A stretch of DNA of 64,000 nucleotides from Escherichia coli (GCF_030013205.1 NZ_CP122648.1); one strand, 5' to 3'; positions 55,366-55,870 are shown, counted from the stretch's first letter. The notes: generated by a model not told the origin, from the letters alone. Translations and numbers: made by a program.

Positions 55366-55870
55366 ATGCCGGATGCGGCCTACGGTTCGGCACAGACTTG
55401 TAGGCATGATAAGACGCGTCCAGCGTCGCATCAGGCATTGTGCGCCAACTGCCGGATGCGGCGTGAACGCCTTATCCGGCCTACGGTTCGGCACAAACCT
55501 GTAGGCCTGATAAGACGCGACAAGCGTCGCATCAGGCATTATGCGCCGACTGCCGGATGCGGCGTGAACGCCTTATCCGGCCTACGGTTCGGCACAGACT
55601 TGTAGGCATGATAAGACGCGACAAGCGTCGCATCAGGCATTGTGCGCCAACTGCCGGATGCGGCGTAAACGCCTTATCCGGCCTACGGTTCGGCACAGAT
55701 TTGTAGGCATGATAAGACGCGTCAAGCGTCGCATCAGGCATTGTGTGCCGACTGCCGGATGCGGCGTGAACGCCTTATCCGGCCTACGGTTCGGCACAAA
55801 CCTGTAGGCATGATAAGACGCGACAAGCGTCGCATCAGGCATTATGCGCCGACTGCCGGATGCTGCCTAC
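55366..55870. repeat. BIME/REP cluster: five tandem ~100-bp units
   Basis: ctgccggatgcggcg...cttatccggcctacggttcggcaca...gtaggc(a/c)tgataagacgcg...gcgtcgcatcaggca recurring with ~100-bp period at ~55449, 55550, 55651, 55752, 55852. Confidence 0.9.

Follow-up and report, generated by a model that had tools for sequence, protein, structure and literature searches.

Judged by its sequence, the region between yjjW and yjjV is a BIME-2 composed of alternating, oppositely oriented Y and Z2 REPs, and the array is a five-unit allele of the K-12 element REP352, which occupies the yjjV-yjjW spacer. It was found in a 64,000-nucleotide stretch of Escherichia coli DNA (GCF_030013205.1, NZ_CP122648.1), hereafter called the window, to which all coordinates refer unless another record is named. 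Descriptions of REP and BIME elements go back to the 1980s, and the element found here is itself already known, as it is catalogued in K-12 and its five-unit length is the commonest allele in E. coli. The identity of the array is firm because it is based on direct sequence matches. The explanation as a whole, in which a BIME-2 of the REP352 type would act on transcript ends and gyrase and would change its unit number by recombination, is in our assessment quite probable.

The gene yjjW is located on the plus strand at 54501-55364 and encodes a YjjW-family glycyl-radical enzyme activase of 287 aa with its stop codon TGA at 55362-55364, according to both the ORF list and the RefSeq annotation of strain K_EC180. 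On the minus strand, yjjV at 55881-56663 encodes a TatD-family metal-dependent hydrolase of 260 aa, which has the C-terminus ...LFSVSG and the stop codon TAG at 55883-55881. The two genes are convergent, and the array is extragenic, located between their stop codons. Counted from stop codon to stop codon, the spacer comprises 516 bp (55365-55880), and the entire BIME-2 array (55368-55870, period 101 bp) occupies nearly all of it. Over the 1,451 bp queried, the locus is 100% identical to the swine isolate E. coli K_EC180, whose annotation has yjjI-yjjW on the plus strand, yjjV-yjjU on the minus strand and an empty spacer.

Tandem Repeats Finder reported a single array at 55376-55863 with a period of 101, 4.8 copies, 93% matches, 0% indels and a score of 871, and a repeat search found four in-register 202-nt copies, 101 nt apart and 92-94% identical. 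This confirms the head-to-tail repeat of about 100 bp which the first-pass annotation had described. The Y-REP consensus GCCGGATGCGGCGTGAACGCCTTATCCGGCCTAC matched four times on the plus strand with at most one mismatch, starting at 55451, 55552, 55653 and 55754, and the Z2-type palindrome GCCTGATGCGACGCTTGTCGCGTCTTATCAGGCCTAC matched five times on the minus strand with at most three mismatches, at 55400, 55501, 55602, 55703 and 55804. For both patterns 0.00 matches were expected, and none was found in 100 dinucleotide-preserving shuffles of the window. The repeat array is real and well past chance.

Each unit consists of a 34-nt Y, a 16-nt tail-tail linker (GGTTCGGCACAnACnT), a 37-nt Z2 in inverted orientation and a 14-nt head-head linker (ATTrTGCGCCrACT). 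The order of the REPs is strictly alternating, Z2(-) Y(+) Z2(-) Y(+) and so on, which adds up to nine full REPs (four Y and five Z2) with a 16-nt short Y capping each end. The short Y is a Y REP that lacks the internal 18 nt GTGAACGCCTTATCCGGC. The window does hold five tandem units, as had been claimed, but only four of the Y copies are full length, while the outermost two are internally deleted copies of 16 nt. The first-pass annotation had also described a REP core together with its inverted partner; the inverted pairing stands, but the partner is not the same REP inverted, it is a second REP type, Z2.

Read from the yjjW side, the array starts with the left short Y GCCGGATGCGGCCTAC on the plus strand (55368-55383), 3 nt past the yjjW stop codon; in the predicted structure it pairs with the sequences on either side of the Z2 next to it. 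The first Z2 (55400-55436, minus strand) has three mismatches to the local consensus and a hairpin of -13.8/-14.7 kcal/mol. It is followed by the first Y (55451-55484, plus strand), which reads CTAC-3' on the plus strand and, in the REP reading, GTAG-5' on the minus strand, with a hairpin of -21.3/-19.5 kcal/mol. The second Z2 (55501-55537, minus strand) is the sole copy with GGCCTG and has a fully paired lower stem (-20.4/-21.3 kcal/mol). The second and fourth Y (55552-55585 and 55754-55787, plus strand) and the third, fourth and fifth Z2 (55602-55638, 55703-55739 and 55804-55840, minus strand) all match their consensus and fold into hairpins, and the third Y (55653-55686, plus strand) is a loop variant with GTAAAC. 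The right short Y GCCGGATGCTGCCTAC (55855-55870, plus strand) closes the array 10 nt from the yjjV stop codon.

A BIME-2 is defined by y and z2 REPs that are present in multiple tandem copies with short linkers and in a number which varies between strains (PMC3333891). The array contains Y-type REPs (four matches) together with Z2 rather than Z1 REPs (five, on the minus strand), which alternate in inverse orientation as head-head and tail-tail pairs. Its linkers are short, 16 and 14 nt, and do not include the long L motif, and the tandem copies (4.8) vary in number between strains (zero to five units). All nine full REPs are extragenic imperfect palindromes of 30-40 nt, and all of them carry the GTAG/CTAC foot and a 2-nt internal mismatch in the stem. 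The earlier claim that the convergent genes yjjW and yjjV enclose a large BIME array is therefore borne out, with the features of BIME-2 present and those of BIME-1 absent from the array.

BIME-1 elements, which combine Y with Z1 around an L linker with an IHF site and occur as a single copy, share with the array the Y REP and the extragenic position. This class was rejected, as the array is multi-copy and holds neither Z1 nor IHF sites: the window has a single Z1 REP, outside the array at 51899-51927, and the four IHF-consensus matches in the window all fall outside 55365-55880. That Z1 REP belongs to a separate REP doublet (51853-51928) in the deo operon, in the 126-bp gap between deoC (51942-52745, minus strand) and deoA (50493-51815, minus strand). 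There, a Y-like REP GCCGGATGCGTCTACGCCTTATCCGGCCTAC on the plus strand is joined by a 15-nt linker to the Z1 REP on the minus strand. From its sequence, this pair would count as an atypical BIME, since it combines Y and Z1 but lacks the long L linker.

The resemblance of the array to a CRISPR is superficial and limited to regularly spaced short palindromes. Unlike a CRISPR, it has two repeat types alternating in opposite orientation and conserved linkers, and a CRISPR array was rejected because the segments between the REPs are themselves repeated at 93% identity, with no unique spacers. The array also resembles REPINs, hairpin-forming REP doublets that RAYT (TnpA-REP) transposases mobilise, in that each Y/Z2 pair can take the form of a single long hairpin with -42 to -51 kcal/mol and every full REP shows the GTAG foot and the stem mismatch required by TnpA-REP. 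However, the change in copy number at this site resembles unequal recombination and not transposition. REP352 was the only one of the eight REP clusters studied in K-12 that RAREFAN left without a RAYT-associated REPIN call (K-12 preprint). Going by position relative to K-12, the RAYT gene (tnpA-REP/yafM) should lie outside the 64-kb window.

The orthologous genes of K-12 MG1655 also converge, and the spacer between them (4,614,261-4,614,679 in K-12) measures 419 bp and holds four units. The element is named REP352a-h after the EcoCyc annotation and has a 2-nt overlap with yjjV (K-12 preprint). The locus, the flanking genes, the 101-bp unit and the left boundary (CAT followed by the short Y) are the same in K-12 and in the window, and the units of the two are up to 100% identical. 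The two alleles differ in unit number, five in the window versus four in K-12, and in their right boundary. The K-12 array finishes with a full Y that supplies the stop codon of yjjV, and YjjV ends in ...LFNVP, whereas yjjV in the window has an independent stop codon after ...LFSVSG, followed by 10 nt and then the short Y. In the alignment, the CTAC tail of the full Y is read on the K-12 yjjV strand as a stop codon, ...CCG TAG GCC GGA..., which explains the 2-nt overlap between REP352 and yjjV. The yjjV stop codon of K-12-type alleles (3750-3800 of the K-12 record, to be compared with 55855-55890 in the window) is the GTAG foot of the full Y, and in O157:H7 the YjjV C-terminus is ...NVRG, an allele with its own stop codon. 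Since the boundary variants differ in the end of YjjV, the REP boundary has reshaped the last two to three codons of the protein.

The predicted RNA structures of the spacer are strong. In local folds, single-REP hairpins form on either strand; those of Y range from -19.5 to -21.3 kcal/mol and those of Z2 from -13.8 to -21.3 kcal/mol. In the window, four Z2 copies out of five carry GGCATG instead of the consensus GGCCTG, and as this exchange removes one G-C pair, the Z2 hairpin weakens from about -21 to about -14 kcal/mol. Both head-head and tail-tail Y/Z2 doublets have a single long hairpin as predicted alternative. Compared to shuffled sequences, the folding z-scores of the region are -10.8 and -11.7 for the two strands. 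A global fold of the whole spacer was set aside; it is dominated by long-range Y:Z2 pairing, has an ensemble frequency below 0.001 and is uninformative on co-transcriptional structure, and therefore local folds were used instead. An intrinsic terminator was rejected, as no hairpin followed by a T-run was found on either strand of 55365-55880.

The roles we propose for the array are inferred from other BIME-2 elements. Transcription would reach the array from either flank, and the array would serve as 3' untranslated region for yjjI-yjjW on the plus strand and for yjjU-yjjV on the minus strand. The stacked REP hairpins would then block 3'-to-5' exonucleases and attenuate read-through, partly via Rho, and in this way would keep transcription of each converging unit out of the other. 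REP325, which has the same BIME-2 design, acts in this manner. According to the REP325 study, about 60% of the REPs that E. coli carries are located between convergent genes, and REPs in this position go with higher expression of both genes. In the same study, genes that end in REPs did not in general have longer mRNA half-lives, and the dependence on context was large. At the DNA level, the Y REPs might serve as sites for gyrase binding and cleavage. Gyrase cleavage sites are enriched in BIME-2, more in Y than in Z2, and binding and cleavage in vivo have been reported for a subset of BIME-2 elements. The yjjW-yjjV array is not listed in the text or supplements of the gyrase BIME-2 paper or in the supplements of the REP325 paper, and the literature searched contained no expression, 3'-end or gyrase data for it. 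A single yjjW row in these supplements, a differential-expression entry of unspecified contrast, was left out of account.

Stalling of ribosomes at the stop codons may contribute to the effect of the array, and in the strongest version of this idea the main effect would be translational. Structure near the stop codons would then stall terminating ribosomes, which would be rescued by tmRNA, and less YjjW and YjjV would be made. The argument for stalling is that each of the two stop codons has predicted RNA structure beginning less than 15 nt away: the predicted helix between the short Y and the adjacent Z2 begins, on the yjjW side, with the final base of the stop codon and, on the yjjV side, 5-6 nt past the stop codon, and in K-12 the hairpin of the full Y begins at the yjjV stop codon itself. 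REP352 is also listed among the REP clusters within the 15-nt limit of the REP-near-stop rule. However, the first full REP hairpin in the window is about 35-40 nt away from either stop codon, and the structure closer to the stops involves a truncated REP and stems from thermodynamic prediction alone. A mainly translational effect is compatible with the explanation we favour, and we consider it unlikely, although still a serious possibility.

The unit number of the array varies clearly between strains. The comparison across strains that the first-pass annotation had suggested was carried out with a BLAST query in which 800 bp of each flank were joined without the array, so that the spacer length equals the span minus 1,600 bp. 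Our sample comprised 60 records, taken at even steps through 5,423 ranked E. coli genomes, all of them complete. Spacer lengths in the sample were discrete and followed 101-bp steps: five units (about 515 bp) in 19 records, four units (about 414 bp) in eight, three units (313 bp) in five, two units (212 bp) in nine, one unit (about 111 bp) in 14 and no unit (about 29 bp) in four. No genome in the sample had more than five units, which bounds longer alleles at a few per cent, and the allele of the window belongs to the longest class seen, which is also the commonest. Within clones the alleles are stable, as all four K-12 derivatives in the sample have four units and both O157:H7 records have two. 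In E. coli O157:H7 OK1, which carries the two-unit allele, the annotation gives yjjI (1-164 of the record), the glycyl-radical enzyme gene upstream of yjjW, as a pseudogene with a frameshift.

Two types of empty site were found. One is a lone short Y (record L005, which has the most divergent flanks, 92.8%), and the other is a lone full Y with the K-12 boundary type (record L004). In the remaining record of the sample, the spacer is split by an insertion of IS1397 inside a REP. This is strain L1PEag1 (NZ_CP145513.1), in which IS1397 (4872-6220 of the record) lies in the loop of a lone Y REP, between GCCGGATGCGGCGTAAAC and AAAACGCCTTGTCCGGCCTAC. IS1397 is reported to insert specifically into palindromic units, and the insertion in L1PEag1 agrees with this. 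The existence of alleles with no unit (about four of 60) and of an allele split by IS1397 shows that the array is dispensable.

The sequences of the alleles, inspected with one example for each length class, point to how the number of units changes. The first and the last unit are common to alleles of different length, while the inner units are mosaic; unit 2 of one record (L008), for example, is a hybrid with its left half from one subtype and its right half from another. Shared outer units and mosaic inner units are the trace expected of unequal recombination or slippage between units. Unit number would therefore change by unequal homologous recombination or by replication slippage between the 101-bp units.

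To locate the site in other species, the YjjW C-terminus was turned into a degenerate DNA pattern, which matched five Escherichia genomes at species level but brought up neither E. fergusonii nor other genera. Y/Z2 REPs were found in the same spacer in all five lineages recovered, with 1.5 to about 11 units. The spacer of E. albertii contains Y, Z2 and a degenerate Y, all of full length, that of Escherichia sp. E1V33 two units, that of E. whittamii four units and that of E. coli SCPM-O-B-8794 one Z2 and one Y. Escherichia sp. MOD1-EC7003 has 10.9 units over about 1.1 kb (3258-4351 of its record), in the form of 11 Z2, 11 full Y and a short Y, with units of 100-102 bp, and its array is twice as long as the longest E. 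coli allele sampled. As all five lineages carry Y/Z2 arrays at one site, the site has been occupied since before their divergence. E. albertii has a full-length Y where the window has the left short Y, and the short Y copies of E. coli are most simply explained as later internal deletions of full Y copies. GGCATG is the majority form in the other Escherichia arrays at the site (20 of 24 distinct doublets), which indicates that this variant is old and has been maintained.

The array might also have no function. In that case it would be a selfish or neutral repeat which persists via recombination, perhaps with the help of RAYT, in a spacer that tolerates any content. The distribution of alleles fits such a view in several ways: the zero to five units in E. 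coli have no preferred value except by lineage, the shortest and the longest Escherichia array differ by ten units, and the zero-unit and IS1397-disrupted alleles occur in otherwise normal, complete genomes. The stems provide no covariation either. Two structures were compared, two local hairpins versus one long doublet hairpin, both about 96% paired, and the doublets, 24 distinct ones drawn from six Escherichia lineages, showed hardly any variable stem pair, with observed values equal to the shuffled ones, a result equally compatible with RNA-level selection, DNA-level selection and gene conversion. On the other hand, nine of the ten variable columns in 15 E. coli units are outside the stems, in linkers or the Z2 loop (hypergeometric P = 0.0099), although the uniformity of the stems could equally stem from gene conversion among the copies. 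Neutrality also has to account for a site that is occupied in every recovered Escherichia lineage and in roughly 93% of the sampled E. coli, and for the report that deletion of a BIME-2 of the same design shifted neighbouring transcripts 3- to 10-fold (2026 preprint). A functionless array is in our view quite improbable.

The array also matches the Rfam family naRNA4 (RF02564), which raises the question of a nucleoid RNA. On the minus strand, i.e., the yjjV sense, four Y-linker-Z2 doublets at 55403-55481, 55504-55582, 55605-55683 and 55706-55784 exceed the gathering score of 59.5, and the four scores are 83.7, 78.9, 74.7 and 74.2 bits. The plus strand gives one match of 61.0 bits. For calibration, the six units of REP325 itself scored 95-111 bits, and the arrays at the yjjW-yjjV site in K-12, E. 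whittamii and MOD1-EC7003 scored 67-85 bits. An unrelated Y/Z2 doublet between phnE1 and phnD in K-12 (1250-1330 of the record) was also matched, with 69.1 bits. As RF02564 accepts the phnE1-phnD BIME and all tested arrays at the site, it recognises BIME-2 head-head doublets in general and is not specific to REP325.

Other Rfam matches in the window were of two kinds. Three further RNAs were found in the scan at gathering level: the sok antitoxin RNA at 10026-10178 (plus strand, 116.9 bits), the tpke11 sRNA at 11563-11640 (minus strand, 69.6 bits) and the threonine operon leader at 25304-25423 (minus strand, 121 bits). As the thr leader is on the minus strand, the window crosses the K-12 coordinate origin in reverse orientation. 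Matches to mir-3130 and mir-58 had E-values of 0.26-0.41 and scores far below the gathering scores, and were treated as chance.

REP325, located between yjdM and yjdN, resembles the array in its tandem Y-linker-Z2 doublets (six units) and near-identical REP stems. The order on the yjjV-sense strand, Y (GTAG first), linker and Z2, is the order of REP325 in its own direction of transcription. Both elements have a head-head linker ending in GCCGACT, but this end abuts Z2 in REP325 and Y in the window array. They differ further in period (100 versus 101), in the tail-tail linker (AAATTCCCGCACCCTCC in REP325 versus GGTTCGGCACAnACnT), in RF02564 score (95-111 versus 74-84 bits) and in setting, since REP325 is found between genes on the same strand and the window array between convergent genes.

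From these likenesses, the units could be read as naRNA4-like sRNA genes, whose products, discrete RNAs of about 77 nt, would be cut from the 3' end of yjjV and would, together with HU, bridge DNA cruciforms and condense the chromosome. The reading draws on the four minus-strand units and the one plus-strand unit above the gathering score, on the Y-linker-Z2 order shared with REP325, and on the original report of 2015, which proposed that naRNA4 and HU condense the nucleoid (PMC4550694). Against it stands that RF02564 was built on REP325 and yet accepts BIME-2 doublets generally. The array also has no promoter signal above chance, with two sites in the array region against 1.1 +/- 0.9 in shuffles; the promoter-like match at 55869-55841 on the minus strand was treated as chance. 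Moreover, a 2026 preprint, which shares the author S. Adhya with the 2015 report, disputes the nucleoid activity of REP325/naRNA4 itself. Neither its deletion nor its overexpression changed nucleoid volume, REP-REP contacts were absent in Hi-C, and no stable complex of HU, DNA and naRNA4 was seen; instead, within its operon REP325 is described as stabilising mRNA and as attenuating transcription in a partly Rho-dependent way (2026 preprint). A nucleoid role for the units is very improbable.

The repeats also give rise to open reading frames. Eleven ORFs of at least 40 aa overlap the array on both strands and recur at 101-nt offsets, a frame shift of 2; as 101 is not divisible by 3, successive copies of one ORF are in different frames and overlap each other. 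That the repeats encode small proteins, as the 47- to 114-aa ORFs of the six-frame translation and the recurrence of ATG-started ORFs of 69-79 aa could suggest, has practically no chance of being right, given that the copies overlap among themselves and with opposite-strand ORFs, that none of the six ORFs tested has a Pfam match, that RefSeq has no CDS there in K_EC180 or K-12, and that alleles of 0-11 units would create and destroy such ORFs at will. The array ORFs are repeat artefacts, and the first-pass annotation had already called them spurious, a judgement which the frame shifts, the Pfam result and the RefSeq annotation support. For annotation, the 500 bp are best masked as a repeat and their ORFs ignored, and the Rfam naRNA4 matches are better read as a sign of a BIME-2 doublet than as evidence for a nucleoid RNA gene.

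Within the explanation that we favour, a BIME-2 of the REP352 type acting on transcript ends, one further step can be considered. The array has been kept at one site since before the split of Escherichia and yet changes in whole units, and for this reason it might work as a rheostat. The number of units (0-11, in 101-bp steps) would set, lineage by lineage, how well the converging operons are insulated and how much YjjW and YjjV is produced, and boundary variants with a REP-derived yjjV stop codon, and hence an altered YjjV C-terminus, would tune this further. Such a rheostat is a speculative proposal, and we hold it to be decidedly unlikely. The locus does offer a clean natural allelic series, which runs from zero to five units in E. 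coli and up to 11 in a sister lineage and includes two boundary types. With this series one could test the current proposal of a two-way terminating and stabilising action of REP clusters that lie between convergent genes.
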